A stretch of 64,000 bases of DNA, taken from IMG/VR virus record IMGVR_UViG_2724678985_000012; one strand, written 5' to 3'. The notes under the pieces were generated by a model. The model was not told the DNA's origin and did not search any database. It saw nothing but the letters and a program-made list of their open reading frames with translations. Positions 11,313 through 64,000 of the stretch are shown piece after piece (position 1 is the first letter of the stretch; the number at the start of each line of letters is the position of its first letter). This DNA is from a virus. Its lineage: Duplodnaviria > Heunggongvirae > Uroviricota > Caudoviricetes. The translations under genes and the position numbers were made by a program.

Positions 11313-11320
11313 AGCGTGAT

Positions 11321-11830: not shown

Positions 11831-11981
11831 ATTTTTCTCCCGGTAATGGGTTAATAAGTAGGCAAACTATGGGGAGTATGTGATTTTGACGGTAGTATCG
11901 TCCCCCTGAAAATAACATTCTCCATACCCTCTCAACCGTACCGCATAGCGGAATTTTTTACGGTTTAGAGGGGGAAATCCT

Positions 11982-14900: not shown

Positions 14901-17900
14901 CCGCTACGAGAAAAAACCATCGAGGAGAACTCACAGCAAGCTGTCTTTAATGCTGTGGAAATGGGGCGTCTTGACCTGGCGTCCGGTAAACACCGTGATG
15001 CGCAGAAGAAGAACAAGATTAAGGATCAGGCCGCGAATACCGGTACAACGAAGAAGCAGAATATCCCGTACTTTGAGGATATGAACTTCGATAGCGTGAT
15101 TGCCGACGAGGGGCATAACTACCGCAACTCCTTTAATGCCGGGCGTGAAGCGGGACAACTGGCATATTTGCCTAACCCGGCAGTATCCAAGATGGCCCGC
15201 GACATGGCTGTAAAAGCTGCGTACATGATGAAACGCAACAACGGGCGTGGTGTAGTCATGCTGACGGCAACTCCGCTGGTGAACAGTCCGATTGATGCCT
15301 TCAACATGCTGTCTACTGTCATTCCGCAGGAAGAGTGGATGCGCATGGGCATCATTACGCCTGATGATTTCGTTCGTGTGTTTGGCAAAACAGCCACAGT
15401 TCAGGTCCAGAAAATTTCCGGGGAAGTGGAAGAGAAGCAGGGGCTGGTGGGCTTCCAGAACCTTGACGGCCTGCGTGGTATTTTCCATCGTTGGACCACT
15501 CTGAAGACTGCTGCAGATGTCGGAGCAACGGTTAAAATTCCCGACATCATTGAGAACACCTTGCAGATCCCGATGACAGGGGAGCAGGAGACTGCTTATG
15601 AAGAGCTTCGTAAGCGTGCTCAGGAGTTAAGTCGCAATGATGAGCTGACAGTCGATGAAAACGGGCATATCACTAACGACAAACCGGATGATTTCATCTT
15701 CTCCATCATCCGTGACATGGACAAGGTTGCTATAGACCCGGATCTGTATGCCAGTGCGATTACATTCCAGTTCCCCGTTGAGCTTGCAGACCAGGTAAAA
15801 GCTATTGCTGATGCCTTGCCAAAAGTAGCTGGCGGTAAAGTGGCAGATGATGTTGATGAGGCCGAGGAAGACGGCGCTGGCGGGCTGGTCAGTACGCGTA
15901 CCAGCAAGGTAGTGAAGACCGCTTTTAGTGAACATCCGACGCATGTTGAAATACGTGCCAGCATTGAACTGGAAGCTGAAATACTTAAGGCCATTGCGGC
16001 TGCCGGTATTGATATGCAGCAGGTATCGCACCCCATCCCGCCGAAGTATGCCGCGCTGATCGAAAATCTTCGTGAAGGTCTGAAGAACGGTAAGCAGATC
16101 GTCTTTATTGATGAAAAAGCCCAGCACCAGAAGCTGCGCCGTATTATCGCCAGTGCACTGCAAATGCCGGAGCAGGAGATTGGCATTATCAATGCGACGA
16201 CAGTTAGCCAGGCTGGCGGCATCAAGCTGAAGAAGGTGAATAAGCCGACCGAACCTACTCCAAACAAAAACGGTGAATACAAAGAAGGGGCATGGGAAAC
16301 CTACTACAGCAAACTTGCCCAATATGAGGATTATCTCTCAGCCAAAAATGATGCTGGCCTTGAGGGCATGGAAGGTATTGCCGCCGACTATAACGAAGGT
16401 CGCACGCGCATCATAATCTGTAACAAGAAGGCTGAAGTAGGTATTAACCTGCACATCGGGACAACCGATATCCACCACCTGACACTACCCTGGACACCAG
16501 CCAGTATCGACCAACGAAATGGGCGCGGTGCGCGCGTAGGTTCACCGCAAGAGAAGGTCAATGTTCACTACTATTGTGGCAAAGGCACATTCGACGACTT
16601 CCGTCTGGATACGCTGAAACGTAAGAAAGACTGGATCAAGATGGTGATGACCTCCGACATGTCAGAGATCGCCAATGGTGATGCGGATGATGCTGATGAA
16701 CGCGCCATTATGCTGGCGGCAAACCCGGAAGAACGCCGCGCAATCATGGCTCGCCAGGCGCAAGAGCGTGAAGAACGTCTGAAACTGAAAGCACAGCGCG
16801 AGGCCAACAATGCTCTCGATATCTACCTGAAAGCGGCAAACGCCGCCGGAAAAGATATCGGCATGATGGAGACAGAACTGAAAAGCGCGATGGAACAGAT
16901 AGAGTATTACCAGCGCAATCTTGACGACCTGATAAAAGCGGGTACGAACAGGAATGGGCAAAAATACGCGCTTGAGCAGTTGAGTAGCTACAGAAAACGT
17001 GCGCGGGTGCTGAAGTTTGCGATCACCAGGGCAAAAGACGCGGATACCATAATGAAACGCTCTCGTGGTGATGTGGAGCGCGCTATTAAGTCTGGTGTGC
17101 TGGATATCAGTATCGATGTTATTCAGAACCCACAGGAATATATGCGCACTGACAAGAATATCCTGTTGCATAAAGGTAGTTATTACCGTGCAGTCATTGA
17201 TGATCGCGAAACAACAGCGATTGTCCGGGTGGAAAAAATTGACGGTGAAAAAGCACAATACATCTGCCGTATCGCCTGGCTGGATAGAGCAAGTCGTTAC
17301 GCTCGATCACCGGGGTCAATCGTTACATTGCCGTTTGACTCTGTGATTGAAGCGGTAACTTTTGAAGAGGGGGTAGCTGAATCGCGCGCAACGGCTGCGC
17401 GTGGTGTTCAGTGCCACCAGCTATCAACGTCACTTACTCGCGATCAGTTCTATGATGCTATTCGTAACGGAGTAATGAAGGTCACTACAGGCCAGCCTGG
17501 TAGAGCATGGGGCGGTGAACCAGGTATTAAATACTGGGCCTATCGCACCGATGATGGTCAGATCGCGCTGTCATCGACCTATGATGGCATGATAGGACAG
17601 AAAATCGGGCGTACATCGGATATTGCACCAGAGCAGTGGATTTACCCTGATATCAACAATGAGGCGCTGAAGCGTGAAGTGGCAAAAATACAAGCCAGTG
17701 ATAATCCGCTGAATATCGTGGACGGAGAGGGATTCCTCCAGGCATTGTATGGGTATGATTACATCCAGGGAATGCAGGCATGGGGCGCACAAGCAACGAT
17801 GGATGATGTTGCCCAGGAGTTCGAAAACTGGATGGCTGGGCGTGGTCTGTCAGGTCGCTCGCTTAATAAAGTCACTTCTGAAGATATTCTTAGCTTGTTC

Positions 17901-18818: not shown

Positions 18819-18854
18819 CAGATAAGGAGCGGCCCCAACCGGGGCCGAATTTGA

Positions 18855-19289
18855 ATGACGACATTAATTGACACTGTAAAACCGACGGAATCCTACCTTG
18901 AGGACATTTTGCCGCAGGCGCTCAATGGCAGGAGTGAAGAAGAATACCTGACAGTTTATCTTGATGGCATGGTAGAAAGACTGAAGAAAAATCCACAGCT
19001 TTATCACCTTTATGGGCCGTGGTGGCCTGCGCTTAAAACGTTATTGCTGGAGCGCGGCGACATATCATTTGGACAAGTTGTAGATAGTGATGTGGCAGAG
19101 ATCTACAAAATGAGTCGCCCGGCGCTTACGGTTTTGGCTGGGCATCTGTATTCGAGCGATCGCCTGGGAAATGACGCGGTATACAATCCCGTTCATGCTC
19201 TGGAAGTCGCACCTTATGCTGATGATACAGAGCCATACGTGTACATAAGTTACGACGAGTCTATAGAGAAATATCGAATCATGGGGTAG
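18855..19289 (+). CDS. hypothetical protein
   Basis: 144 aa ORF immediately downstream of darB-like. Confidence 0.4.
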   Translation: MTTLIDTVKPTESYLEDILPQALNGRSEEEYLTVYLDGMVERLKKNPQLYHLYGPWWPALKTLLLERGDISFGQVVDSDVAEIYKMSRPALTVLAGHLYSSDRLGNDAVYNPVHALEVAPYADDTEPYVYISYDESIEKYRIMG

Positions 19290-19291
19290 CC

Positions 19292-19552
19292 ATGCGAAAG
19301 AATCGTAGGTTTACGGTCGAAGACCTAAAGGAATATTCCATATCGAAGGGGTATATCCTTGAGTTCCACCGATACAAGAAGGTTTTTACGCTGCGAAAAG
19401 CAGAAAACCCTGCGAACTGGAGCTGGATATACTTTCCTCACACCGATGATAAGTTGGTAGAACTTGTTGATGATTTAACCTATGAAGGTTGGTTGATCGC
19501 AATCGACAAGACAATCAAAGAATTATCCGAACAGGATAAAATAACCCTTTAA
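19292..19552 (+). CDS. hypothetical protein
   Basis: 86 aa ORF, tightly coupled to upstream gene. Confidence 0.4.
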   Translation: MRKNRRFTVEDLKEYSISKGYILEFHRYKKVFTLRKAENPANWSWIYFPHTDDKLVELVDDLTYEGWLIAIDKTIKELSEQDKITL

Positions 19553-19723
19553 AAATAACAGGTTGGGTAAATGCCATGCGATTTACCCTCCTTGTTGATT
19601 AAGGTCACTCTTTACTCTAAAAGCAAATCCGACCTGTTGCATATAGACCATCCTTGAGTAGTATCTCTCTTGTTTTACAAATCTAACGTTGTTGTTATTA
19701 TTTCGCATATTTACTATCAATGG

Positions 19724-19740
19724 GTGTGTTAGAAAATAGC
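19724..19740 (-). promoter_or_regulatory. C1-operator-like motif site 3
   Basis: GTGTTAGAAAATAGC in AT-rich intergenic region. Confidence 0.4.
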
Positions 19741-19885
19741 GCGAAAGAGAAGGCGTCGCAGTGAATATTCTGAAACATCCCCACATGCCGCAGCTCTTAG
19801 AGAACTGGAGAAAAACCCAGATCTAATCAAAAGGAACCATGAGCATTACGAGCAGGTTCGCGTCCTGGACTGGTTGTATCGCAAT

Positions 19886-20182
19886 ATGCGTTATGTGTAT
19901 GAGCATACTCACGCCACTCCAAACGGTGGCCTGCGAGGCATAAGGACGGCAATAAAAATGGTGGCAGAGGGCCAAAAGAAGGGATATCCCGATCTTTCTA
20001 TAGACCTTGCTTGTGGGGGATACCACGGAATGCGCATTGAGATGAAACATGGGAGAAATCGCCTGACTCCCGAACAACTCGTCTGGATGACCCGCCTCAC
20101 TGAAGCCGGTTACTACTGCTTTGAGGCGCGCAGTGCCGCTGAAGCCATAAAAGCTATCACGGAGTATGTTTGTCTTGATTAA
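19886..20182 (+). CDS. VRR-NUC domain nuclease (PD-(D/E)xK)
   Basis: GYPDLSID...GMRIEMKHG...LTPEQ pattern typical of VRR-NUC; ATG at 19886. Confidence 0.55.
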   Translation: MRYVYEHTHATPNGGLRGIRTAIKMVAEGQKKGYPDLSIDLACGGYHGMRIEMKHGRNRLTPEQLVWMTRLTEAGYYCFEARSAAEAIKAITEYVCLD

Positions 20183-20196
20183 ACGGAGAAATCGTT

Positions 20197-20397
20197 TTGC
20201 GTTTACTTAACGTGGCAGAACTTATCCCTGCAGGAACTAATGCTATCGCTCGTCGTCGCTCATGGCAGCAGGCTCTATGTATTGAGATCTCGAAACGTAT
20301 CAATGGAAGTTTTGAAGCTCGCAATATTGTTACTGGCGATAAGGTTCACATAACCCCGGAAAGTGCAAGCGCTGATGATTGGGAGTTTGTACATTGA
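20197..20397 (+). CDS. hypothetical protein
   Basis: 66 aa ORF. Confidence 0.3.
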   Translation: MRLLNVAELIPAGTNAIARRRSWQQALCIEISKRINGSFEARNIVTGDKVHITPESASADDWEFVH

Positions 20398-20693
20398 GCA
20401 AAAAATATTATGTGAGTCTGGCGTTCGCTGACGATGCGGGGAGGACGCGGAGTATCACGTTGAGCACACCGGTTAAGGCTGTGACAGCGCCGTTAATCCG
20501 TGAAGCTCTCAGAGAGCTGGAATTGGGTGAAAACTCGGCACTGTTGTCGGTTAGTTGGTTAGGGAAAATGTCAGAGAAACAATACGTGGATGGAGTTACC
20601 CCAATAACAGTAATGAGGCTACTTTCATTGCTGCAATGGGCCATCGTACCTGTATTTATCGCGTATCTTATTTATCAGGCTGCAACACAGTAA
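20379..20693 (+). CDS. hypothetical protein with C-terminal transmembrane helix
   Basis: 104 aa; C-terminal hydrophobic LLSLLQWAIVPVFIAYLIY; start uncertain. Confidence 0.35.
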   Translation: MGVCTLSKKYYVSLAFADDAGRTRSITLSTPVKAVTAPLIREALRELELGENSALLSVSWLGKMSEKQYVDGVTPITVMRLLSLLQWAIVPVFIAYLIYQAATQ

Positions 20694-20700
20694 TTGCATA

Positions 20701-23249: not shown

Positions 23250-23326
23250 GATGGTGTAGCTCAGTAGGATAGAGCAGCAGCCTTCTAAGCTGTCGGTCGG
23301 TGGTTCGAATCCACCCACCATCGCCA
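23250..23326 (+). tRNA. tRNA-Arg (anticodon UCU)
   Basis: 77 nt cloverleaf: acceptor GATGGTG/CACCATC, anticodon loop CTTCTAA, T-loop TTCGAAT, encoded CCA. Confidence 0.85.
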
Positions 23327-23331
23327 ATTTA

Positions 23332-23418
23332 GGGGAGTTAGTCCGTAGGGGTAGCGGGGTAGACTGTAAATCTACTGTCATTGCGACTCGGGTGGTTCGA
23401 CTCCATCACTCCCCACCA
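23332..23418 (+). tRNA. tRNA-Tyr (anticodon GUA), long variable arm
   Basis: 87 nt; anticodon stem-loop GTAGA-CTGTAAA-TCTAC as in E. coli tRNA-Tyr; acceptor GGGGAGT/ACTCCCC; CCA. Confidence 0.75.
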
Positions 23419-23422
23419 AATT

Positions 23423-23498
23423 GCCGGTTTAGCTCAGTTGGTAGAGCGCCTGCCTTGTAAGCAGGATGTCAGCGGTTCGAGTCCGTTAACCGGCACCA
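23423..23498 (+). tRNA. tRNA-Thr (anticodon UGU)
   Basis: 76 nt; acceptor GCCGGTT/AACCGGC; anticodon loop CTTGTAA; CCA. Confidence 0.85.
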
Positions 23499-23704
23499 AC
23501 ACAACAGGTAAGGGCATTCTCCCTTATGGGGCTTGGCTTAAATGCATCGAGTGCTCTTACCGTTGTGATGAAGTGCAGCTCTTTGAAGCAACCAGAAGAT
23601 AAGCATCTGGCTTCACAACATAAACCGCAGGAACGACCAATAAACGGTAGTCCGTATGGAGAACACCCCGTTGAGGAAGAGGCCTGGCCGGAACCGTAAC
23701 CGGC

Positions 23705-23803
23705 ACCACAACGTTGAGAACACTGGCGTAACGGGGTCATATCCCAATCTATGAATAAATGTTGCGTTGCAGCGTGACAACCAGTGTTCTCAACATTGTG
23801 GTG
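23705..23803. repeat. long inverted repeat (20-bp arms) of the tRNA-island leader/trailer repeat family
   Basis: CACCACAACGTTGAGAACACTGG ... CCAGTGTTCTCAACATTGTGGTG; related copies at 23498-23518, 23562-23592, 23881-23902, 24080-24111. Confidence 0.7.
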
Positions 23804-23900
23804 AATGCACAGGCTGATGTGCCGCAACTACAGTAGTGCGCGCTTTGCGGGGCTTGCTACAACCCTGTGTCGGAGTTCAGCACCGACCATCACAATCACT

Positions 23901-23987
23901 GGAGAGTAGGGAGCATGGTGCTCAAGCGGTCTTGAAAACCGTCCCATTGCGCAAGCGATGATGGTTCGATTCCATTACTCTCCGCCA
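23901..23987 (+). tRNA. tRNA-Ser (anticodon UGA), class II with long variable arm
   Basis: 87 nt; acceptor GGAGAGT/ACTCTCC; anticodon stem-loop GCGGT-CTTGAAA-ACCGT; CCA. Confidence 0.7.
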
Positions 23988-24250
23988 GTGCAACGTTAAG
24001 AGTATTTGGCTAATTAAGCGAATGCCGGAAGCAGAACCGGATCACCAAATGCGTACAGGCGTCATCGCCGCCCAGCCAGCCAAGTGCTCTTACCATTGCG
24101 GTGAATGCGGCTAAGCGCACGCGGAACAGTTAAAACAATCCTCCTTAGTGGTTAAGTCAAACATCCCGGCGTTAATTGTTAACTGGTTAACGTCACCTGG
24201 AGGCACCAGGCACCGCAGCTTTTTTATTCGGTAAATAATGGAGTGAGAGG

Positions 24251-25294
24251 ATGCAGAACAATCCGAACAAATGTCGAACGCTATGGGTGCGGTTATATAT
24301 TTATGTCGTCCTCTGTTTGATTGTGTCACTGGTTCTGTATGTTTGGCTTTTGCCAAATATGATCTCATCTGACAGCACAATACTTGTATTGTTGGGAGTC
24401 CTTCTCGCGCTCATTTACCCGGCTTTTGCAGTAGTCTTTTTTCGTGAAAAAACCAGGAAATTGATTAATGAAAAAACGTTGATTAGTGCAGCGATTATTT
24501 TTGGTTCTTTATGTCTGACCGGATGCGATCGGGTAGAGCCAGGTAACGTAGGGATCAAAGTAAATAAGCTGGGGGATGATAAAGGTATCGGTGAAGTAGT
24601 TGGCGTTGGTCGCTACTGGACAGGCTTGAATACTGAAGTTTATATCTTCCCGACCTTTAAGCAAATGAAGACATACGATGAGCCGTTCAGCTTCCAGATG
24701 AGCGACGGAACAACCATTGGTTACCACATCGGCGTAGCCTACAAGGTTGATCCAGCAAAAGTCACAACGGTATTTCAGACCTATCGCAAAGGTGTAGATG
24801 ATATTACTGATACCGATCTACGCCAGAAGGTTGCAGATGCTCTGAACCGGTTAGCCAGCAAAATGACCACCGACAAATTTATCGACGGTGGCAAATCTGA
24901 ATTGCTTGATGCAGCCCTTAAAGACATTCAGGAAGAAATGACGCCCATCGGTATTCAGGTAATGAGCCTCTCATATGTGGGCAAGCCGGAGTACCCGCCA
25001 ACCGTTATCGACAGCATTAATGCCAAAGTCACGGCGAACCAGAAAACTCTGCAACGCGAGCAGGAAGTCAAGCAACGCGAAGCAGAAGCCAACATGCTGC
25101 GCGCAGAAGCTGCTGGACAGGCCGATGCCATTCGCACAAAAGCCCAGGCTGAAGCTGATGCCATTCGTTTACGCGGTGAGGCTCTGCGCCAGAACCCCGG
25201 CGTTATGGAGTTGGAAGCGATCAACAAATGGAACGGAACGCTACCGCAGTATATGACCAGTAATACCGCTGTTCCGTTTGTTCCGGTGAAATAA
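24251..25294 (+). CDS. SPFH (band-7/prohibitin)-domain membrane protein
   Basis: N-terminal TM/lipobox-like LTGC; SPFH-like core then Ala/Glu-rich coiled coil; true start likely downstream (24358 or later). Confidence 0.55.
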   Translation: MQNNPNKCRTLWVRLYIYVVLCLIVSLVLYVWLLPNMISSDSTILVLLGVLLALIYPAFAVVFFREKTRKLINEKTLISAAIIFGSLCLTGCDRVEPGNVGIKVNKLGDDKGIGEVVGVGRYWTGLNTEVYIFPTFKQMKTYDEPFSFQMSDGTTIGYHIGVAYKVDPAKVTTVFQTYRKGVDDITDTDLRQKVADALNRLASKMTTDKFIDGGKSELLDAALKDIQEEMTPIGIQVMSLSYVGKPEYPPTVIDSINAKVTANQKTLQREQEVKQREAEANMLRAEAAGQADAIRTKAQAEADAIRLRGEALRQNPGVMELEAINKWNGTLPQYMTSNTAVPFVPVK

Positions 25295-25448
25295 CCAAAT
25301 AGATAACATGATGGAATTTTGGACGTTTGCCGACAAGAACCCTTGGTGGACATTTTTATTTCTGCTGGTGGTTGCATATGGGGTCGAGCAAGCAGCAAAA
25401 GCCTTACGCGGTCCTGGCAAAAAGCGTAAGCGGAATTAACAGTAATCT

Positions 25449-25524
25449 GGCCCTTTAGCTCAGTGGTTAGAGCTGGCGACTCATAATCGCACGGTCACCG
25501 GTTCAAGTCCGGTAGGGGCCACCA
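25449..25524 (+). tRNA. tRNA-Ile2 (anticodon CAU, ileX-like; Met not excluded)
   Basis: 76 nt; near-identical architecture to E. coli ileX; anticodon loop CTCATAA; CCA. Confidence 0.75.
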
Positions 25525-48682: not shown

Positions 48683-49299
48683 TTAAGTTGAATTGTGAAT
48701 TTCCCCGATGTACATTCACTACCGATTGGTACACCGGTCAACTTTTTGAGACAAACTGTTTAGTTTTTCGTATTATTGCCGCCGCCATACCTATGGCGGT
48801 GCAATATAGGTGGCTGAAAAGCCCCCGTTGACTCACGGTGTTCCAGCCTTTATTGCGCCGCCACCAGACCGTGGAACAGTCGATGGCGGCTCCGAAAGCA
48901 AGGAGTCACTACACTATGAACAACTACAGTCTTTTCCCATCACTCGTCGTCCACCACTCACGCGATAATCTGCATTCTTTACTCGCGCCGGGGGTGTCAA
49001 AATGACTGTTCGCTACCTCAACTTTCAAATCAAGAACATTACTGGCGGTTGCTATGACTGGTTTGTCACTCTCGGAAAAGAAGTGATTACTGGTAAACTG
49101 GATGAAGTGAAAGCTAAAGCAATGGCCTACGCCTGCAAGCAAACCAGGAAGAAATCCGCCAAAGCATAAAATACTGACTGTTGCGCCCTGGCATTATCGT
49201 GGGGTATATTTCTACGGCACCTTAGAAAAACGGGTGCCGGGATTGGAACCCCGGATAATGTCAAAGGCGACACAGACGCCGAAAGCGTCTTTTTTTGTG

Positions 49300-49481
49300 T
49301 CACGCCATCGCACAGCCATACGTAGCGTTTAGCTCAGAGATCAATGGTAGTGCTGGCTGGGCTGCCGAAAGGCAGGCCGGTTCCCTTTGACGCCGGTAGT
49401 TCCAACCCAGTCAGTGCTACCGCCATTGAGATTGGAACCTCACGCGGTAGCTCCTTAACTTAGTCAAAGGAGGCTGCCAAT
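49300..49481 (+). ncRNA. c4-like antisense RNA / icd leader region of immI module 2 (boundaries approximate)
   Basis: follows terminator gacgc-cgaaa-gcgtcTTTTTTT; tRNA-like GTTTAGCTCAG; GGTAGTGCTGGCTGGG pairs with CCCAGTCAGTGCTACC 45 nt downstream. Confidence 0.35.
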
Positions 49482-55646: not shown

Positions 55647-56006
55647 TTAAACACCAACCAGACTTTCCAGTGGAATACCAAACTGGGCATGTAAACGACG
55701 AATCATAGGTAACGTCAAATTTCGTGTCCCATTAAGCACTTCGTAAACACGGTTTGACTTACCAATTGCCGGTTCCAGATCCTTCACGGTCAGTCCTTGC
55801 TGTTCCATACGGAATTTAATGGCCTCAATAGGTGATGGTGGCTCAATTGGGTAATGTTTTTTCTCGTACTCCTCAATGAGAAGACACATAACCTCAAAGA
55901 AATCGCCTTCCGGTGTGTTCATTTCCGGTTCGTTATCGAACATCGGTTCGACCGCACGCAGTGCGGCCTCATAATCTTGTTCTGTACGGATAGGTTTAAT
56001 GTTCAT
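55647..56006 (-). CDS. HigA-type (ygjM-like) HTH antitoxin-like protein, orphan
   Basis: 119 aa; C-terminal IGKSNRVYEVLNGTRNLTLPMIRRLHAQFGI HTH; flanked by terminators. Confidence 0.55.
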   Translation of the reverse strand: MNIKPIRTEQDYEAALRAVEPMFDNEPEMNTPEGDFFEVMCLLIEEYEKKHYPIEPPSPIEAIKFRMEQQGLTVKDLEPAIGKSNRVYEVLNGTRNLTLPMIRRLHAQFGIPLESLVGV

Positions 56007-56062
56007 TAATTACAAAGGAAAGCCCACTTGCTAAGTGGGCTTTTTGTATGTGTTTTACTATA

Positions 56063-56401
56063 TCAGGCTGCTTTTTTATTCAGGTTCCGCTGAGAAATAA
56101 ATTTTTCAGCAGTATTGATACGACTTAACTCTTCCTGAACGCGCATATCATTTTCGACTTCCCACAGTTCTACTGCGGTCTGAAGATTAATCCAAAAATC
56201 TACAGAAGTATCGAATGCTTTTGCCAGGCGATATGCCATATCCATCGTTAGCTTACGATTATTATTAACAAGAGCACTTACGGTGTTACGATGAACATGA
56301 AGTATTTCTGCTAACTCGTTGATCTTCAGCTCTAACGGCTCCAGGTATTCGTACAGCAGGATATCACCTACGGTCGTCGGTTTTCTGGTTGCCTGTTTCA
56401 T
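56063..56401 (-). CDS. higA: HigA antitoxin (N-terminal HTH family)
   Basis: 112 aa; VGDILLYEYLEPLELKINELAEILHVHRNTVSALVN...FWINLQ. Confidence 0.75.
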   Translation of the reverse strand: MKQATRKPTTVGDILLYEYLEPLELKINELAEILHVHRNTVSALVNNNRKLTMDMAYRLAKAFDTSVDFWINLQTAVELWEVENDMRVQEELSRINTAEKFISQRNLNKKAA

Positions 56402-56471
56402 TTTTTGCCCTTACTAGCGTGCGTATTAAGTGGACTCTGGTCAGAACCCGGTCCGTAACCGGGTATCTGTT

Positions 56472-56774
56472 TTAGTATTTGTGAGGGTCGAGATACAAGT
56501 CCTCGGCCTTTCCGTTAACCCACTTAAAAATTAACCTATATTGCTTATTCACCCTTACTGATGAATAGCCATTTAGCTTCCCTGACAGTTCCTCATACCG
56601 ATTACCTGGTGGTGATCTTAAATCCTTACAGGTAGTTGCGGCATTGATAATGTCCAACTTCCGTGACAATGTCATATGAATATCAGGAGGTATCTTTCTA
56701 TGTGGTGTTGAAAATTCAAAAAAATCATCAAGCCACGCATCCCTGAAATCCTTTATGTTAATTTTTTTGGTCAT
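56472..56774 (-). CDS. higB: HigB toxin (RelE/ParE superfamily)
   Basis: 100 aa; DLRSPPGNRYEELSG...VRVNKQYRLIFKW motif; upstream of higA. Confidence 0.75.
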   Translation of the reverse strand: MTKKINIKDFRDAWLDDFFEFSTPHRKIPPDIHMTLSRKLDIINAATTCKDLRSPPGNRYEELSGKLNGYSSVRVNKQYRLIFKWVNGKAEDLYLDPHKY

Positions 56775-56936
56775 TAGTCATTTGATCCTCCGTGATGATT
56801 ACCGAATGCCATAACTATAGCGCACCGTTGCACTGTGCGCAAGTGCATTTTATGAATTCCCCCTCCTTCATCCAAAATCACAATCTCCCGAAAATCTTCC
56901 TTTCGATACCTGACAGATCGACCTTTGAGGATGCTT

Positions 56937-57728
56937 ATGGGCCGTTTTGACGAATGGTTTGCTGACGATGCAAACCTGGCAAGTAAGGAGTCAGAACATG
57001 ACAGCACGCAGAGAGAAACGCCAGCGCCGATTGAAGCGAATGCAGGAGGCGCGCCGGAACATGGCAATACCGGTTCGGATTCATTCAGCATTCTGGAAGA
57101 GCAACCCGCCGCCAAAGCTGATAGCCATGATAATTTTGCTGATAGCAACGGTGGCCTTACTCCGGATGCTGGCGAATCAGATATAGCCATACTTCCATCT
57201 TCCCTGGCTGGCAGAGAACCGACTCCACAGTTAAAAGCACGCTATAACGGGCATAAAGCCTTTAACGACCAAATCCGCGCAGACTGGATGCTGATTATTG
57301 AATCCAGCCCAGACGCGTTTCAGGCTCTCTTATATCGACCAGATGTTGGCACATATGGGGTAGTCAGCGACGAAACAGGAGAAGAGTCATTCACTGAACT
57401 GGATAACAACCAACGCGAACTGACTTACCAGGAACCTGAAATCGTTTATGTGCTGGATAACCCTGACGGGCGTGACTCTTTCCATGCGATTGACGCAGAC
57501 GGTGAGCAGGATGGCTTAACCGATGATGTTCTGATTCTGCGTATTGCAGCAAATAACGTCCCCGTCGGCTCAATTCTTGAATGGAATGAAGAGATGGTAA
57601 ACGGCGTAGCCCGCCGCTGGTGGTACGTGCACCGTATTTTTAGCTACGGCACACAGCATGTTGGTTCGCTTTACTACTGCATACCTGCCAGAAATTTTGA
57701 TACGACTCAAAACGGAGTGATCGAATGA
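56937..57728 (+). CDS. hypothetical protein (acidic; first gene of tail/baseplate-proximal operon)
   Basis: ATG 56937 with GAGGA SD. Confidence 0.4.
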   Translation: MGRFDEWFADDANLASKESEHDSTQRETPAPIEANAGGAPEHGNTGSDSFSILEEQPAAKADSHDNFADSNGGLTPDAGESDIAILPSSLAGREPTPQLKARYNGHKAFNDQIRADWMLIIESSPDAFQALLYRPDVGTYGVVSDETGEESFTELDNNQRELTYQEPEIVYVLDNPDGRDSFHAIDADGEQDGLTDDVLILRIAANNVPVGSILEWNEEMVNGVARRWWYVHRIFSYGTQHVGSLYYCIPARNFDTTQNGVIE

Positions 57729-58492
57729 CTTCAAATAAAACCCTCCTGGCACGAACAGGTGAATGGCAAACCTCACGCACAGGAAAATTCCAGACCACGG
57801 GCTTTGAAAACGTGGATAACGCGTTTGCTACGCTAATCAGCAATATCTTTTCTGATATCTTACTGGTGGCCCCCGCGCCGGAAGAAAAACGCTTTGCGTC
57901 ATTCCTGAATCGTCCACCAGCAGAGCGTGTCTATGTGGCCCGTTTCGACAATGCGATCGAGTTTCTTAAAGCAGTTCGTCGCGCAAATGCCGGGCAAGGG
58001 AGAAAACCTGAAAACCAGAACATTAACCGGGATGCTCTCCCCCTGGTCAATATCTCACGCACTATGGATATCAATTATATCAACGATGATCAGCAGATTG
58101 ACCGCAAAAAAGTAGCCAGTTTTTGCGAACCGGATACCGGAATGCCTTTAGCAGAACTGGAATACACCCAGGCCATTCTGACGTATGACGTTACGTTAAT
58201 GGCAACTGATAAAGCGACCATGAGTCTGATGTGTAATTCGCTGGGCGCACGGCTTCGCCTGATGACAGGTACACAATTTGAAGCAACCACTCACCTTGTT
58301 CGTGTCCCGGTCCCGCTGATTTGCTCGATACAGGATGCCAAAGAAGTCGGCTTTACGGATGTTTCAGCACCAATTGGAGAAGAGCGTATTTATGCCACAC
58401 AAGCGCCGATAAGTGTGATTGCAGACGTGATCACAGCATGGGAGTTGGACGCAAAACGTATTATTACCGAAACCTCGATATCTATGGGGTGA
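57725..58492 (+). CDS. hypothetical protein
   Basis: 255 aa; ATGA overlap. Confidence 0.4.
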   Translation: MTSNKTLLARTGEWQTSRTGKFQTTGFENVDNAFATLISNIFSDILLVAPAPEEKRFASFLNRPPAERVYVARFDNAIEFLKAVRRANAGQGRKPENQNINRDALPLVNISRTMDINYINDDQQIDRKKVASFCEPDTGMPLAELEYTQAILTYDVTLMATDKATMSLMCNSLGARLRLMTGTQFEATTHLVRVPVPLICSIQDAKEVGFTDVSAPIGEERIYATQAPISVIADVITAWELDAKRIITETSISMG

Positions 58493-58495
58493 TAA

Positions 58496-59476
58496 GTGGC
58501 CCAGGAGTTACAACAATATTTTCTACAGTCAGTGCTCATTAACGATAACAAAGTGCCACGAGACTGGATTTTTACCGCAGTATATGTAGAAAAAACCAGC
58601 CTCAAAGCCCCTTTGCTAAAACTGGAAATTCATGACGCTACCGGCACCGTAATTGATGACTGGAAAGCCAAATACGGTGCATCGCTGGTGGCTGAAATGG
58701 GCGATCCAAACGGTAATGCAGGCACTTTTAAAACAGATTTCTTTGTTACGTCTGCAATGCTGGCTGGTGATGTTGTTACCGTTATTGCTGTCAGTGAAGA
58801 CGTGCGCAGGTTTAAGATCCCCTCCCCGCGCACAAATTTACATACCAACAAAACACCAGACGCTATATTCAAGGCATATTCCGGCAAACTTAAAATTACC
58901 AGCAGCGTGCTAAAACGCGCAGTTACATATCATCTGAATGCTGGTGACAAACCGTCAAAAATGCTTTCGGAGATAGCGCGAGACAAAGGTGCATTGTGTT
59001 GGGTATGTCGGGGGGAATTTAACTTTTACACCCTGGCTGATCTGATGAAGCAAACGCCATCATTTACCTACGAGGGGAATAACCCTAAAGCAGAATACAC
59101 TTTGTCAAAAATGCGCCTACTCCAACAGGAACATGCGACAACAGCAAAGAATCAATATCGTTTTGTTGGGTATTCCATGACCGATGGCTACGTCGAATAT
59201 GGCGATAGCTCACTCCCAGTGCGTTATATATCCGACTCTGATATGGAAACTCTTCGCAATATGCAGCTGTCTCTCGTCCCCAAAATGGATATAGAAGTCG
59301 CAGGCAATCCTGATATAAAACCGGGGATGGTAATAGAGATTATCGTATACCGCTATGACCAGGAAAACCGCATTGATGAATCAATGCCCCGTAAGCTGAT
59401 AGTAAAAAATGTTGCGCACTTTGAGGACCGCGTAGGCTACACAACACGAATGATATTGGGAGTGCCTAACAAATGA
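58496..59476 (+). CDS. putative baseplate hub-like protein (by position upstream of spike)
   Basis: 326 aa; GTG start; overlaps spike gene start. Confidence 0.3.
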   Translation: MAQELQQYFLQSVLINDNKVPRDWIFTAVYVEKTSLKAPLLKLEIHDATGTVIDDWKAKYGASLVAEMGDPNGNAGTFKTDFFVTSAMLAGDVVTVIAVSEDVRRFKIPSPRTNLHTNKTPDAIFKAYSGKLKITSSVLKRAVTYHLNAGDKPSKMLSEIARDKGALCWVCRGEFNFYTLADLMKQTPSFTYEGNNPKAEYTLSKMRLLQQEHATTAKNQYRFVGYSMTDGYVEYGDSSLPVRYISDSDMETLRNMQLSLVPKMDIEVAGNPDIKPGMVIEIIVYRYDQENRIDESMPRKLIVKNVAHFEDRVGYTTRMILGVPNK

Positions 59477-60126
59477 AGCGTAGAGCGCAAATTGTTGGAA
59501 CTGTGCACCCGGCAGGGCTTATGCGTGCTCAAGTCCGTGTTTTACCTGACTGGAATGGCGTTCCTGATGACGATCTACCCTGGGCGGAATACCTGTTACC
59601 CATCGGAAACGCTTTTGTACCCACAGTCAAAGGTGACCTGGTCTGGGTAGAGTTTCCTTATTTAGATGTTAACGGTCGAATAGACACCAGACGCCCAATG
59701 ATAGTTGGTGCCGCTCAGGATGCACCGGGAGGAATTCCAAACGTTGCACCAGAAGCATCTGGCAAAGGCAACGGCTGGACGCCGCCGGAAGTAGATGGAG
59801 CACCTCCCCGCCCCCAAATCTCAGCAACGAAAGACTTCGTTATTCACCGCAACAATATTCTTGAAGTACGAACTGCTGGTGGCGGCTATGAAATTGCCAA
59901 TACGGCAGCAGGCTCAAGGATTGGCATGAATGAGTCCGGGCAGATATATATCATTGGTCCGGCTGATGTAATCGTGAATGCAGGAGGGAGTGTTAACGTC
60001 AAATCAGCCAACAACATCAATGTTAAAGGGGAAAATATTGCTGTCACCGCTAACGGAGACATAGCTTTCAAGGCAGGAGGAACCTTTCAGGCCACTGCTA
60101 GCAACTTCGATTTCAAGAAAGGATAG
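59473..60126 (+). CDS. baseplate spike protein (gpV / Mu gp45-like)
   Basis: 217 aa; N-terminal OB-fold pattern RAQVRVLPDW...GDLVWVEF; C-terminal beta-helix-like repeats. Confidence 0.5.
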   Translation: MKRRAQIVGTVHPAGLMRAQVRVLPDWNGVPDDDLPWAEYLLPIGNAFVPTVKGDLVWVEFPYLDVNGRIDTRRPMIVGAAQDAPGGIPNVAPEASGKGNGWTPPEVDGAPPRPQISATKDFVIHRNNILEVRTAGGGYEIANTAAGSRIGMNESGQIYIIGPADVIVNAGGSVNVKSANNINVKGENIAVTANGDIAFKAGGTFQATASNFDFKKG

Positions 60127-60157
60127 AAAATGCACCCATTTGTGTTAGATAATTAAT

Positions 60158-60175
60158 ATGTATTTTCTAACACAA
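60158..60175 (+). promoter_or_regulatory. C1-operator-like motif site 13, embedded in 14-bp inverted repeat
   Basis: CCATTTGTGTTAGA...TCTAACACAAATGG around TATTTTCTAACAC, upstream of rdgC-like gene. Confidence 0.5.
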
Positions 60176-60185
60176 ATGGTGAGAC

Positions 60186-61091
60186 ATGAGATCAGTCGCT
60201 TTCAAAAATATCTTCATCTATCGTCTTTCACGCGAAGTTAGCTGGGATACTGCAGAAGTAAATGCAGCCCTTAGCAAGTTTGTGTTTACCCCATGCGGTT
60301 CTCAGGATATGGCTAAAGCTGGTTGGACCCCCGTTCTTGGCGACAACCTCACCCATGAATACCAAGGTTTTCTTCTGATACAGCATAAACGAGAGGAAAA
60401 AATCCTACCCTCTCAAGTGCTCAAAGAAGAGTTACAGAAAAAAATCCTGACACTTGAAGAAGAGCAAGACAGAAAGCTGAAGAAGACTGAAAAAGATTCG
60501 CTGAAGGATGAAGTGCTTCACTCTCTGCTTCCTCGTGCTTTCACGAGAAAATCAGTCGCTAAAATCCTGATAGACCGAAGCAATCATCTGGTTTTTGTCG
60601 AGGCCAGCAGTGCTAAAAAAGCAGAGGATCAGCTGGCTTTGTTACGGAAATCGCTTGGCAGCTTGCCCGTTGTCCCCTTCTCTCCGAAAGACCCATTAGA
60701 ACTGACCATCACTGGCTGGATTAAAAATGGCTTCCCGAACGGTTTCCGTGCCGGTGAGGAAGCGACCTTAAAAGCATTGCTTGATGATGGCGGCGCGGTC
60801 CGCTGCAAAAAAGTGGACCTGCTATCCGACGAGATCATGAGTCATATAGAAGCTGGTAAGGTTGCAACCACAGTTGCGGTTAACTGGCAAGACCGTGCAT
60901 TTTTCAGACTGAATGACGATATGAGTATCAAGGCTTTGTCGTTCAGCGACGAATTGTACGACCAGAACGACGATATTGATCGAGAGGATGTTGCGCAACG
61001 ATTTGACGCTGACTTTATCCTGTTTACTGCTGAATTATCCGCGATGTTCACTTCGCTGGTGGAGGCCGTTGGTGGTGAAGCAGAACGTTAA
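60186..61091 (+). CDS. rdgC: RdgC-like recombination-associated protein
   Basis: 301 aa; long collinear similarity to E. coli RdgC ([49 protein letters not shown]). Confidence 0.8.
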
Positions 61092-61104
61092 CAATAGACC
61101 TCTG

Positions 61105-61755
61105 ATGGTGAGTCTTTGTGATTTCACGGGGAAAATGGTCGCCCCCTGGCTGGAGCATGGTATAGATGCTGTTATCGTCGATCCACAACACGCAGAGACC
61201 AGAGATGAGCTGATGCAATCAGGCGCAGTTCTGACACGTATCAGTGCGATTATCGATAGTGATGAAGTTTATGCTTTTCTCCGAAATAATTTACAACGTA
61301 TTGTGTTTTTAGCTGGTTTTCCGCCGTGCACGGACCTTGCTGTTTCCGGTGCGCGCTGGTTTGCGCATAAGGCTGACAAAGATCCGTTTTTCCAGTTCAA
61401 AGCGATGCAGGTCGTCTGGCAGTGTTACGATATTGCAAAGATGATTGGTTGCCCGTACATGATTGAAAACCCGGTCAGCCAAATATCGACATTCTGGCGT
61501 AAACCTGATCACATCTTCCATCCTTACCACTTCACTGCATATTGCAAGGAAGACAATTACACCAAAAAAACATGCCTCTGGAGCGGGCAAGGCTTTGTCA
61601 TGCCTGATGCCCTAATGGACGAATCATTAGGCAAGCCAGATAACAGAATCCATACCGCGCCACCTGGACCTGAAAGGGCTAATTTTCGAAGTGCTACTCC
61701 GCATGGATTCGCAAAGGCAGTTTTCGAAGCGAATAAGGGGGTGCTCTATGAGTAA
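61105..61755 (+). CDS. small C5-cytosine-methyltransferase-like protein
   Basis: about 216 aa; motif I-like LCDFTG, PC motif GFPPCTDL, ENV-like MIENPVS; no obvious target-recognition domain. Confidence 0.35.
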   Translation: MVSLCDFTGKMVAPWLEHGIDAVIVDPQHAETRDELMQSGAVLTRISAIIDSDEVYAFLRNNLQRIVFLAGFPPCTDLAVSGARWFAHKADKDPFFQFKAMQVVWQCYDIAKMIGCPYMIENPVSQISTFWRKPDHIFHPYHFTAYCKEDNYTKKTCLWSGQGFVMPDALMDESLGKPDNRIHTAPPGPERANFRSATPHGFAKAVFEANKGVLYE

Positions 61756-62653
61756 ATCTATAGCAAGCATAGCCATAAAAAAACAGGATACGATGGCTGA
61801 AATTAGCTATATGCGCACCATTCGGACTCCGGATGAATATGAGCGCCCGATCTTCAAATGGGTAGGCGGTAAATTCTCAGAGTTGCCTACAGTGCTTGAG
61901 CATCTACCACACGGCAAGCGGTTAATAGAACCATTCGTTGGTGGCGGTTCCGTATTTACAAATGCAGGATTTCACCACAACCTGCTTAATGATATTAACG
62001 GTGACCTGATTAACTTCTATCAGACATTGCAGCGAGAAGGACATTCGCTCGTCACGCTGTCATATAGTTTTTTCCAAAATTACAACAACGCTGACGCTTA
62101 CCTCGAAGTGCGTGAGGCATTTAACAGAGGAAAGTATGACCAGCTACATCATGCTGCCGCCTTTTTGTACCTTAATCGGCACTGTTTTAATGGCGTAACG
62201 CGGTACAACCAAAATGGCGAGTTCAACGTGGGGTATGGCAAATACAAAGCGCCCTACTTCCCACATGCAGAGATGGAGGCATTTTTGGCTGATGACGTAC
62301 TCAAAAACACGTCCTTTGTATCAGGTGACTTTGCTGGCGTCATCGAGGCGGCTGGTGAAGGCGATGTGATTTTTTGCGATCCGCCGTATGAACCGCTGCC
62401 GGATACAGAAGGGTTTACCAGTTATTCAGGAAATAGCTTCCGTTTCGACGAACAGAAACGGCTGGTATCTCTATTGGTGGAAGCCCACCAGCGCGGCGCT
62501 AAGGTAGTGATAACAAATAGTGGTGCGCCAAACATCCGTGAACTATATGAAGGAAACGGGTTTAAAGTACATCATATGGCAGCCAGACGGTCGGTTTCCT
62601 GCAAGGCGTCAACACGTGTAGTTGCTAACGATATAATTGCGATAATGAAGTAA
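61748..62653 (+). CDS. Dam-family N6-adenine DNA methyltransferase
   Basis: IFKWVGGK, EPFVGGGSVF and DPPY motifs; collinear with E. coli Dam; ATG 61748 with AAGGGGG SD. Confidence 0.85.
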   Translation: MSKSIASIAIKKQDTMAEISYMRTIRTPDEYERPIFKWVGGKFSELPTVLEHLPHGKRLIEPFVGGGSVFTNAGFHHNLLNDINGDLINFYQTLQREGHSLVTLSYSFFQNYNNADAYLEVREAFNRGKYDQLHHAAAFLYLNRHCFNGVTRYNQNGEFNVGYGKYKAPYFPHAEMEAFLADDVLKNTSFVSGDFAGVIEAAGEGDVIFCDPPYEPLPDTEGFTSYSGNSFRFDEQKRLVSLLVEAHQRGAKVVITNSGAPNIRELYEGNGFKVHHMAARRSVSCKASTRVVANDIIAIMK

Positions 62654-62684
62654 AAAACGCCGCAGTAGCGGCGTTTACTTTTTT
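62654..62684. terminator. bidirectional rho-independent terminator between dam-like gene and glnS
   Basis: aaacgccgc-agta-gcggcgttt with T-runs on both strands. Confidence 0.8.
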
Positions 62685-62701
62685 ATGTGGCGAAATACCT
62701 A

Positions 62702-64000
62702 TTAACCTAACTTCGCCCAGGTATCACGCAGCCCAACGGTGCGGTTAAATACCGGTTTTTCCGCCGTGGAATGGCGGCTGTCGAGGCAGAAATAACCTTC
62801 ACGCTCAAACTGGAATGCTTTACCCGCTACCGCTTCTTTCAGCGACGGTTCAGCAAAGCCCTGTTTGATCACCAGCGATTCCGGGTTAATCACCGACAGG
62901 AAATCATCCGCAGCACCTGGGTTCGGTACACTGAACAGACGGTCGTACAGGCGAATTTCAACCGGCAGCGCATGGGCCGCGCTTACCCAGTGGATAACGC
63001 CTTTCACTTTACGACCATCTGCCGGATCTTTGCTTAAAGTATCGGCATCGTAGGTACAGAAGATGGTGGTGATATTGCCTTCGGCATCTTTCTCCACGCG
63101 TTCAGCCTTAATGACGTAAGCATTACGCAGACGCACTTCTTTACCCAGCACCAGACGTTTGTACTGCTTGTTAGCTTCTTCGCGGAAATCGGCGCGGTCG
63201 ATCCAAATCTCACCGCTAAACGGCACCTGACGGCTACCCATTTCCGGTTTGTTTGGATGGTTCGGCATGGTGACCATTTCGCCTTCGCCCTGGTAGTTTT
63301 CGATAACCAGTTTCACCGGATCGATAACCGCCATTGCGCGCGGGGCATTTTCGTTGAGATCTTCACGGATGCAGGATTCCAGCGACGCCATCTCAATGGT
63401 GTTGTCCTGCTTGGTCACGCCGATGCGTTTGCAGAACTCACGAATAGAAGCAGCAGTGTAACCACGACGACGCAGACCGGAAATGGTCGGCATACGCGGG
63501 TCATCCCAGCCTTCAACGTGCTTGTCGGTTACCAGCTGGTTCAGCTTACGCTTGGACATCACGGTGTATTCCAGATTCAGGCGCGAGAATTCGTACTGGC
63601 GCGGATGAACAGGAATGGTGATGTTGTCCAGTACCCAGTCATACAGACGACGGTTGTCCTGGAACTCAAGCGTACACAGAGAGTGCGTAATACCTTCCAG
63701 CGCATCGCTGATGCAGTGGGTGAAGTCGTACATCGGGTAGATGCACCACTTGTTGCCAGTCTGGTGGTGTTCAGCAAACTTAATACGGTACAGCACCGGG
63801 TCGCGCATCACGATAAACGGCGAAGCCATGTCGATTTTCGCACGCAGGCAGGCTTTACCTTCTTCAAAACCACCGGCACGCATTTTTTCGAACAGCGCCA
63901 GGTTCTCTTCAACGCTGCGGTCGCGGTACGGGCTGTTTTTACCCGGCTGCGTCAGGGTGCCGCGGTATTCGCGGATCTGTTCCGGCGTCAGTTCGTCAAC
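62702..64000 (-). CDS. glnS: glutaminyl-tRNA synthetase, 3' part (gene continues beyond window end)
   Basis: translation matches E. coli GlnRS from residue about 120 to C-terminus; E. coli-like GC and codon usage; ends ...TWAKLG. Confidence 0.9.

Follow-up and report, generated by a model that had tools for sequence, protein, structure and literature searches.

Typical phage morons are lysogenic-conversion, exclusion or virulence factors. The genome of the P1-related phage D6 was reportedly described by Gilcrease and Casjens in 2018. According to a 2019 study (PMC6799933) and the D6 GenBank record (NC_050154), glnS, the gene for glutaminyl-tRNA synthetase (GlnRS), is cargo of all D6-like genomes. 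In D6 it is orf62, annotated as glutaminyl-tRNA synthetase, beyond which come orf61 and two further genes, one ParA-like and one for ParM/StbA-type partition; here and in the D6-like plasmids, which are circular and ~90 kb in size, glnS has a dam-like methylase gene on one side and the partition genes on the other. Another enterobacterial plasmid of similar size (~85–90 kb), pBT1 of Salmonella Typhimurium ST313 D23580, also duplicates an essential aminoacyl-tRNA synthetase gene of its host. Its cysS shares 79% nucleotide identity with the host gene, and experiments in that strain showed the plasmid copy to be required and the chromosomal one repressed (PMC6333337). In E. coli hosts, D6-like glnS is 96–97% identical to the chromosomal gene.

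We examined a 64-kb stretch of DNA (henceforth the window) that very probably represents a portion of a D6-like phage-plasmid, in which positions 62652–64000 are not chromosomal DNA but the 3'-terminal three-quarters of a glnS transcription unit captured from Escherichia. Collinearity extends over the entire window, both with NZ_CP067430.1, a circular plasmid of 92,972 bp, and with phage D6, to which positions 56000–64000 are 96.3% identical across their full length. It has the D6-like gene content (morphogenesis, immunity and methylase modules), and two C4 antisense RNA loci were found in the element. All close relatives are circular plasmids with their own partition and replication genes; the window itself is cut at glnS codon 122, before the partition genes, and its plasmid context was taken from near-identical relatives, its exact source record being absent from both the complete E. 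coli genomes and PLSDB. At the other end, the window start coincides exactly with an edge of the invertible tail-fibre segment, a pattern shared by many draft contigs, and the window therefore probably derives from a draft assembly. The features at the right end of the window are as follows.

60186..61091, plus strand: rdgC/hrdC-like gene of the phage backbone (D6 annotation)
61748..62653, plus strand: D12-class N6-adenine DNA methyltransferase (dam-like) gene of the phage backbone, convergent with glnS (Pfam PF02086, E=1.7e-56; D6 annotation)
62651..62653, plus strand: TAA stop codon of the dam-like gene (ORF list; chromosome alignment)
62655..62676, minus strand: predicted native intrinsic terminator of glnS (scan on both strands, fold, conservation)
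62677..62701, minus strand: 3' UTR of 25 nt, from glnS stop to terminator (alignment with K-12, four other E. coli chromosomes and E. ruysiae)
62702-62704, minus strand: glnS stop codon (ORF list)
62702..64000, minus strand: 3' 1,299 nt of the glnS coding sequence (codons 122–553 plus stop), cut by the window end (ORF list, Pfam)

The dam-like methylase is homologous to orf63 of D6 and resembles the C-terminal half of Dmt from phage P1. The placement of its stop at 62653 and of the glnS stop codon on the opposite strand, with a 48-nt spacer (62654-62701) between them, had been noted in a sequence-only reading of the window and agrees with both the sequence and the ORF list. The minus-strand ORF is identified as a GlnRS by its domains and motifs and is nearly identical to the crystallised E. 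coli enzyme. The synthetase domain PF00749 (tRNA-synt_1c) and the anticodon-binding PF03950 and PF20974 scored above cut-offs in the window fragment as well as in a full-length copy (contig L002). The KMSKS motif, here VMSKR, is present in the window ORF, and the HIGH motif (LHIGHAKS) was seen in full-length near-identical copies, in a region that falls outside the window. A phmmer comparison gave 1,292 bits over residues 1–553 against E. coli GlnRS crystal-structure chains, e.g. 1o0b and 1gtr. The window glnS is 99.5% identical to that of NZ_CP067430.1, 96.9% to D6 and 96.3% to K-12, and one of its amino-acid variants is KLNQL instead of KLNLL. Comparison with K-12 gave a dN/dS of 0.011 at a dS of 0.18, a low ratio that could in part be owed to selection on chromosomal alleles before gene conversion brought them in. 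As had been suspected, the last codons differ from the reference, with the window ending in ...RDTWAKLG and K-12 in ...WAKVGE. Among the matches listed from 80 chromosomal GlnS proteins of other species (a sample without E. coli, E. fergusonii, E. albertii and E. marmotae), the AKLG ending was found in none. A divergent plasmid glnS allele from E. fergusonii ends in AKVEG.

The spacer does contain the perfect 9-bp-stem hairpin described by the earlier reading (AAACGCCGC-AGTA-GCGGCGTTT; nine pairs, six of them G-C, with a 4-nt loop). It lies between an A-run and a T-run, leaving a T6 tail on the minus strand, that of glnS. The terminator scan scored the hairpin on both strands, and the 81-nt region around it has folding energies of -26.7 and -27.8 kcal/mol on the two strands (z = -5.2 for both), with 0 of 200 shuffles as stable. 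We found the same stem and T-tract 3' of chromosomal glnS in 14 of the 14 Enterobacteriaceae loci inspected and in five E. coli chromosomes, i.e. a G+C-rich stem-loop with a U-tract in a conserved position after orthologous genes, as in Rho-independent terminators. Because of this conservation downstream of chromosomal glnS in the Enterobacteriaceae, we take the hairpin to be the native glnS terminator and part of the host-derived DNA; the view that it lies between phage and host DNA had to be given up. A 3' breakpoint of the host homology inside the last four glnS codons was likewise considered and dropped when the hairpin proved to be the native terminator. The true join between the phage backbone and the captured host DNA is instead the dam stop codon, because similarity to the chromosome ends there. 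In the alignment, the chromosome at the join reads GCGGCGTTTTTTCTGC and the plasmid reads GCGGCGTTTTTTACTTC, the last two bases of the dam stop codon being complementary to the final bases of the T-tract in the glnS terminator. On the plus strand, in the direction of dam, the hairpin runs into ACTTTTTT and is therefore predicted to be able to terminate the convergent dam transcript as well. Relatives that lack glnS have a different dam terminator, AAAAGCCCC..GGGGCTTTT.

In D6 and near-identical plasmids the full unit measures about 1.8 kb and comprises ~100 nt of upstream DNA, the 5' UTR with its RBS, the 553-codon ORF, the 25-nt 3' UTR and the Rho-independent terminator. The upstream DNA contains the native sigma-70 promoter (TTGTCA, spaced by 17 nt from the -10 region), and this promoter region is conserved. 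The unit is inserted with the dam-like methylase gene, whose stop its terminator abuts, on one side and the orf61/ParA-like/ParM partition module on the other. Three relatives (L090, L006 and L007) share this gene order but have no glnS. An imperfect direct repeat of 13 nt flanks the 1.83-kb block and is weakly significant (p about 0.01-0.02); it is absent from the E. fergusonii plasmid. Compared with the chromosomal E. coli locus (b0680, nagE-glnS-chiP), the promoter, 5' UTR, ORF and terminator stem are all homologous, whereas nagE and chiP are not neighbours of the plasmid unit. E. coli chromosomes also carry one to three REP copies (about 70–220 nt) between the glnS stop and the terminator, but such a REP/BIME element is missing from the window and from the plasmid unit. 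The plasmid gene is about 96–97% identical in nucleotides to the chromosomes sampled (best 97.2%), and the two proteins differ at about five positions plus the tail (AKLG versus AKVGE). With respect to glnS of D6 (orf62), pYU39_89 and pYU07-18_89, the gene, its location with the dmt/dam-like gene to one side and the partition module to the other, its orientation, the AKLG ending, the terminator and the junction are all as in the window, and identities of 96–99.5% between the window gene and those of D6 and D6-like plasmids reveal no essential difference. glnS as cargo of D6-like genomes is thus already known, and the dam-glnS architecture is normal for D6-like phage-plasmids. What seems to be new from the sequences compared here is the native conserved terminator, and with it the capture of a whole unit, together with the mosaic alleles and a hybrid draft contig produced by shared homology (both below).

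The arrangement resembles phage morons in having its own promoter and terminator, a position between two backbone modules, a host origin and no counterpart at the same site in related elements, but the enzyme it carries is a core housekeeping one that hardly differs from that of the host. Very probably an entire glnS transcription unit (~1.8 kb) was captured from an Escherichia host and joined at the dam stop codon. In the plasmid-prophage state it would presumably be transcribed from its own promoter, giving the lysogen a second active GlnRS for charging host tRNA-Gln, and the captured terminator would also end dam transcription; no tRNA-Gln gene is encoded by the element. A selective benefit might lie in extra charging capacity, in an essential-gene backup or in making the host dependent on the plasmid.

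In 5,426 complete E. coli genomes, a query spanning the junction (62250-62715) matched 84 plasmid records and not a single chromosome. Plasmid glnS alleles are available from about 100 finished plasmids and over 1,000 draft contigs. In PLSDB, 98 records cover at least 80% of a 2.3-kb query made of glnS and its flanks; 120 of all 123 records matching this query are non-mobilizable, and the close matches listed are plasmids of about 90–95 kb from Escherichia, Salmonella and Shigella. Using the rdgC/hrdC-like gene as an anchor for retrieving related contigs, the exact RdgC protein was located in 2,301 index blocks, none of them belonging to a contig larger than 1 Mb. On this sequence evidence the glnS-bearing unit is exclusively plasmid-located. 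In D6 and every close relative examined, phage-plasmid genes stand on either side of glnS, orf61 and the partition genes coming next in D6, in NZ_CP067430.1 and in nine of the ten contigs shown, without chromosomal genes past the junction in any of these.

The sequence-only reading had offered three explanations for the junction, namely chromosomal integration by an unknown route, an assembly chimera and a phage carrying host DNA, of which the last has turned out to be the correct one. An integrated element would be a D6-like plasmid recombined through glnS homology (Campbell-type), with a crossover in the first 363 nt of the gene and the window continuing into nagE. Plasmid and chromosomal glnS do offer 1.66 kb at 96–97% identity, their recombination is evident from the mosaic alleles, and a 200-kb draft contig of assembly GCA_048900485.1 (L110), the only one of the ten shown running into nagE, fuses D6-like DNA to nagE-glnS. 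Nevertheless, we regard integration as highly improbable: the absence of the junction from the chromosomes of the complete genomes speaks against it, the window allele is of the plasmid-lineage type at all diagnostic sites visible (nt 369 to the stop codon), and contig L109, which differs from the window tail by a single base in 13,815, keeps the plasmid context and continues from glnS into orf61 and the ParA-like and ParM genes. As for L110, its switch falls within the last 53 identical nucleotides, which an assembly artefact fits better. The same contig illustrates how glnS can mislead assemblers, and a false joining of plasmid and chromosome through the shared gene in the contig behind the window might also be suspected from the window start at the tail-fibre boundary, as in so many draft contigs. 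Yet L110 carries the chromosomal glnS allele, as a chimera of this kind would, whereas the window carries the plasmid one, and the dam-terminator-glnS join recurs in the D6 record, in about 75 independently finished plasmids and in the near-identical contig. A chimeric window thus has equally little to recommend it, and the D6-like phage-plasmid with a captured host gene is the reading we retain. On this reading, the sequence past the window end would be expected to run through nt 1–363 of glnS in the plasmid haplotype (about 20 differences from each E. coli chromosome examined), the promoter and some 170 nt with iterated motifs of the GGTACAC/GGAACCA type into the orf61, ParA-like and ParM genes.

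The alleles of this captured gene are mosaics in which a plasmid-specific 5' part is combined with E. coli chromosomal 3' segments, and these indicate gene conversion with the host's chromosomal glnS in E. coli. Different chromosomal haplotypes are pieced together in the 3' two-thirds of the plasmid alleles. In the first 400 nt at the 5' end, which are plasmid-specific, 15–25 sites are unlike every chromosome examined, with only three conservative replacements. In its 3' third (nt 1311-1389) the window has a haplotype of its own, common to NZ_CP067430.1. The PHI test was significant with all 13 alleles (0 of 2,000 permutations), and was not significant for the plasmid alleles alone or for the chromosomal alleles alone. 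The K-12-like 3' third of the D6 allele could have been an artefact of propagation on C600, and this was ruled out by the Salmonella plasmid pYU07-18_89 (Mexico), which has almost the same allele. A Salmonella-type conversion had been suspected in pSa1423-90k from its 90% identity, but its 85 alignment gap positions point to sequencing or assembly errors; CP042632.1 likewise has frame errors. The mosaics represent a small, clean natural case of phage-host gene conversion inside an essential housekeeping gene.

What keeps the gene in these elements may be approached through the same data. If glnS were a maintenance device, lysogens would rely on the plasmid copy while the chromosomal one is down-regulated, as with pBT1 cysS, an experimental precedent in Salmonella Typhimurium D23580; the idea has been proposed for D6-like glnS itself (PMC6799933), and the gene has retained a promoter of its own, with nearly all plasmids having it intact. 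However, strain TUM12355 has an intact chromosomal glnS beside the plasmid copy, only one of the 5,426 complete genomes lacks a glnS match, two toxin-antitoxin systems are already present in the elements, and D6-like relatives do without glnS, so we consider this role unlikely. The existence of glnS-less relatives would equally suit a near-neutral hitch-hiker, which stays intact chiefly because the selected chromosomal copy converts it again and again and not through selection on the plasmid copy, and such a history would also match the chromosomal patchwork of the 3' two-thirds. It is made rather unlikely by the 5' 400 nt, which have not been overwritten and nonetheless remain intact, and by the intact copy on a plasmid carried by Salmonella, whose own gene is only 85% identical, so that conversion is expected to be rare. 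A further suggestion, also rather unlikely, is that the glnS copy acts as a portable 1.7-kb homology in continuing exchange with an essential host gene, which could shuttle alleles between Escherichia lineages, occasionally integrate at glnS or mobilise nag-glnS-chiP (Campbell-type), and make lysogens plasmid-dependent as pBT1 cysS does. Of this suggestion, the gene-conversion part is supported by the alleles compared here, and the shuttling, the integration or mobilisation and the dependence are conjecture.

For the annotation of similar sequences, an aminoacyl-tRNA synthetase gene beside P1/D6-type phage genes is no sign of integration or misassembly. Shared glnS can nevertheless make short-read assemblers fuse plasmid and chromosome contigs, of which L110 is an example, and where a draft assembly of Escherichia or Salmonella has a junction at glnS, the allele type there should be verified. 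The exact plasmid GlnS protein was also present on one contig of 699,698 bp.

The boundary between dam and glnS in the window is formed by the ends of two convergent genes and a hairpin in the spacer between them:

End at 62653, plus strand: dam-like methylase ORF (ORF list)
62655-62676, both strands: hairpin AAACGCCGC-AGTA-GCGGCGTTT, within the 48-nt spacer (terminator scan)
62702-63883, minus strand: glnS ORF, its frame open to the window end (ORF list)

The plus-strand ORF encodes a D12-class N6-adenine methyltransferase (Pfam PF02086, E=1.7e-56) and the minus-strand ORF a GlnRS (PF00749, PF03950, PF20974). The 81-nt region folds with z = -5.2 on either strand, and none of 200 shuffles was equally stable. 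The sequence-only reading had described 62,600-62,720 just as we find it, and its prediction that the last glnS codons were changed was borne out: the window protein ends in ...TWAKLG and that of K-12 in ...TWAKVGE. The AKLG tail was found in none of 80 chromosomal GlnS proteins of other species. Given that the residues past DTW vary widely between species in the chromosomal proteins compared, the altered tail probably does no harm. A second inverted repeat, GGCGAA(13 nt)TTCGCC, surrounds the glnS stop codon (62690-62717); its K-12 counterpart is weaker (GCGAAA...TTTCGC) and it is absent from other E. coli alleles.

Searched against 5,426 complete E. coli genomes, a query spanning the junction (window 62250-62715: dam 3' end, spacer and last glnS codons) matched 84 records, all of them plasmids, and 0 chromosomes; in about 75 of the records the full junction was matched at ≥95% identity. 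In PLSDB, a 2.3-kb query of glnS plus flanks matched 98 records with at least 80% coverage, 120 of 123 matching records were non-mobilizable, and the close matches listed were plasmids of ~90-95 kb from Escherichia, Salmonella and Shigella. The best matches of the window in both collections were also all plasmids of ~90-95 kb. Its exact RdgC protein occurred in 2,301 indexed blocks of public assemblies, none with a contig larger than 1 Mb and only 3 with one larger than 200 kb. Over the last 13.8 kb of the window, a near-identical contig of 88,815 bp (L109) shows one base difference; past glnS it continues into orf61, ParA-like and ParM genes. A phage-chromosome junction had been proposed at 62640-62720, attributed to integration, to a phage carrying host DNA or to an assembly chimera; of these, the phage carrying host DNA is right, and the junction, integration and chimera readings are not supported. 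The exact plasmid-type GlnS protein with the AKLG tail occurs on 1,000 contigs or more, of which the longest (699,698 bp) may represent a cointegrate, scaffold or chimera.

Window 56000-64000 matched phage D6 over its full length at 96.3% identity. The D6 record annotates the gene (orf62) as glutaminyl-tRNA synthetase and carries on its far side orf61, a ParA-like gene, a partition protein and a ParM/StbA-type gene. Among E. coli sequences the best match, the circular plasmid NZ_CP067430.1 (92,972 bp), is collinear with all 64 kb of the window and shows the gene order rdgC, dam, glnS, orf61, AAA ATPase, stability protein, parM. Rfam detected two C4 antisense RNA loci in the window (9931-10136 and 49217-49427), RNAs that are typical of P1-type immunity regions. 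The collinearity with D6 and NZ_CP067430.1, along with the C4 loci, argues that the window is a piece of a D6-like phage-plasmid and that glnS is internal to that element. The paired loci suggest two P1-type immI/ant-like immunity regions within one element; an a1/b1 target element was seen at one of them, and an isrK-like sRNA adjoins the second. Base 1 of the window corresponds to position 50503 of NZ_CP067430.1, where a Cin-like recombinase gene borders on the invertible tail-fibre segment, and in several draft contigs of related elements rdgC lies ~59-61 kb from the start, similar to the window. The window thus probably represents the opening 64 kb of a draft contig broken at the invertible segment.

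For the 3' side of the captured DNA, plasmid copies were aligned with the chromosomes of E. ruysiae, of five E. coli strains and of further Enterobacteriaceae. In the latter (Salmonella, Citrobacter, Enterobacter, Kluyvera, Atlantibacter, Cedecea, Trabulsiella and others), chromosomal glnS is followed after 20-30 nt by the stem AAACGCCGC/GCGGCGTTT and its T-tract, and in E. coli and E. ruysiae the same hairpin comes after 1-3 REP copies. We therefore rejected a phage origin for the hairpin, as the homologous stem stands 3' of chromosomal glnS across the family. Similarity between chromosome and plasmid ends right past the T-tract (chromosome GCGGCGTTTTTT|CTGC, plasmid GCGGCGTTTTTT|ACTTC), inside the complement of the dam TAA stop codon. 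On the 5' side, beyond the window, it starts ~95-100 nt upstream of the ATG in D6, NZ_CP067430.1 and the E. fergusonii plasmid NZ_CP099330.1, and this shared stretch covers the -35 TTGTCA, the -10 region, the 5' UTR and the RBS. Judged from these alignments, what is inserted between dam and orf61 is the whole glnS transcription unit, ~1.8 kb, without REP elements.

Three relatives, NZ_CP028585.2, NZ_CP099353.1 (an E. marmotae plasmid) and NZ_CP085065.1, keep the same gene order without glnS: dam is followed by another terminator (AAAAGCCCC..GGGGCTTTT), short iterated motifs and then orf61. These motifs, of GGTACAC / GGAACCA / GACACCA type, sit between orf61 and glnS or, when glnS is absent, between orf61 and the dam terminator (8100-8230 in L002, the NZ_CP067430.1 locus, and 4430-4545 in L090, a relative without glnS; both beyond the window), and might serve the neighbouring ParA-like system as a centromere-like site. 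An imperfect direct repeat of 13 nt, ATT(G/T)CAATAATGA, flanks the 1.83-kb glnS block (L002 6237-6249 and 8065-8077), its left copy at the dam end (window 62636-62648) and the other just past the glnS promoter. The repeat is weakly significant (~1-2% of shuffles score equally well) and is not found in the E. fergusonii plasmid; microhomology-mediated insertion may have left it, or it may have arisen by chance.

One draft contig, L110 (GCA_048900485.1, contig ABYJHS010000007.1, 200,202 bp; fusion locus 10001-20700), has precisely the arrangement that had been imagined for the window: rdgC, methylase, terminator, glnS, nagE-nagBACD. Nucleotides 1-1647 of its glnS are 100% identical to the TUM12355 chromosomal allele and show 56 differences from plasmid alleles; the plasmid type is confined to the last codons (AKLG*) and the terminator, so the switch falls within the last 53 nt common to both copies. 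By its sequence the contig looks like an assembly chimera at these shared nucleotides: a graph assembler would merge both glnS copies into the better-covered one and then leave the repeat on the wrong branch. A real crossover through Campbell-type integration is possible, but the lengths of the identical runs do not favour it. The window differs from this putative chimera, being plasmid-type at every diagnostic site between nt 369 and the stop codon.

The comparison of alleles covered 1,647 nt in eight plasmid or phage copies and five E. coli chromosomes, leaving out the CP042632.1 plasmid allele for its frame errors. The E. fergusonii copy excepted, the first 400 nt are plasmid-specific, with 0-8 sites differing from the NZ_CP067430.1 reference and 15-25 from every chromosome examined; the 3' two-thirds are a patchwork. 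The clearest mosaics are D6 and the Salmonella plasmid pYU07-18_89. At the 60 sites that separate NZ_CP067430.1 from K-12, D6 is plasmid-type at 30/30 sites in nt 36-820 and K-12-type at 27/30 in nt 1020-1584 (Fisher p = 9e-14). In a PHI-type permutation test on all 13 alleles, 0 of 2,000 permutations were as compatible as the observed order; neither the plasmid nor the chromosomal subset alone gave significance. Our reading is that the phage-plasmid copy and the chromosomal glnS of E. coli hosts have repeatedly undergone gene conversion. A laboratory artefact of growth on C600 was rejected for D6, since a field Salmonella plasmid carries almost its allele. In the D6-like E. fergusonii plasmid (L009 3191-4855) both glnS junctions and the terminator stem are shared, and its glnS, with the tail AKVEG, is ~5% from every other allele over its full length; an E. 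fergusonii-type chromosomal allele may have converted the whole gene.

The captured gene is intact in nearly all copies and fixed in position in the phage-plasmid lineage. Full-length plasmid GlnRS copies retain HIGH and VMSKR and differ from K-12 by ~5 conservative changes plus the tail; the window fragment differs by 46 synonymous and 2 non-synonymous changes (dS 0.18, dN/dS 0.011). The nearest chromosomal alleles in a spread sample of ~5,400 genomes are only 97.0-97.2% identical, so the plasmid lineage owns a separate allele, and a Salmonella-borne copy is of this Escherichia type, with only 85% identity to the glnS of the Salmonella chromosome. The five tRNAs of the window (cluster at 23250-25524: Arg-TCT, Tyr-GTA, Thr-TGT, Ser-TGA and one with a CAT anticodon) include no tRNA-Gln, and the plasmid GlnRS would therefore use that of the host. 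NZ_CP067430.1 is annotated with Ile, Ser, Thr and Asn tRNAs, a set unlike that of the window, and tRNA cargo thus varies among D6-like elements.

The native promoter would drive constitutive glnS expression in the lysogen, doubling GlnRS gene dosage, and lytic replication would raise it far more; the captured terminator would serve both dam and glnS. Large GlnRS overproduction in E. coli, as Swanson et al. are said to have reported in 1988, leads to mischarging of non-cognate tRNAs, so dosage in lytic growth could matter. As to benefit, we considered a modest translational or backup gain. A near-neutral hitch-hiker, its integrity maintained via conversion, appears doubtful, and addiction, by analogy with the plasmid-borne cysS of pBT1 in Salmonella Typhimurium D23580, rather less probable still. 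PMC6799933, whose source for D6 is Gilcrease & Casjens 2018, raises that precedent in suggesting that D6-like glnS may help to maintain the plasmid. This paper and the D6 GenBank record describe glnS as cargo of every D6-like genome, so its presence in these elements is already known; the anatomy of its capture appears to add new detail.

D6-like elements are polymorphic in the methylase region (window 61075-61823 against L002 3966-6254 and 10890-13178 in L103, a related D6-like locus), and window 61092-61823 gave no alignment to NZ_CP067430.1. The window and D6 carry two ORFs, one of 226 aa with no Pfam match and a 301-aa D12 methylase; NZ_CP067430.1 and L103 have a single fused 762-aa protein with C5-methylase (PF00145) and D12 (PF02086) domains.
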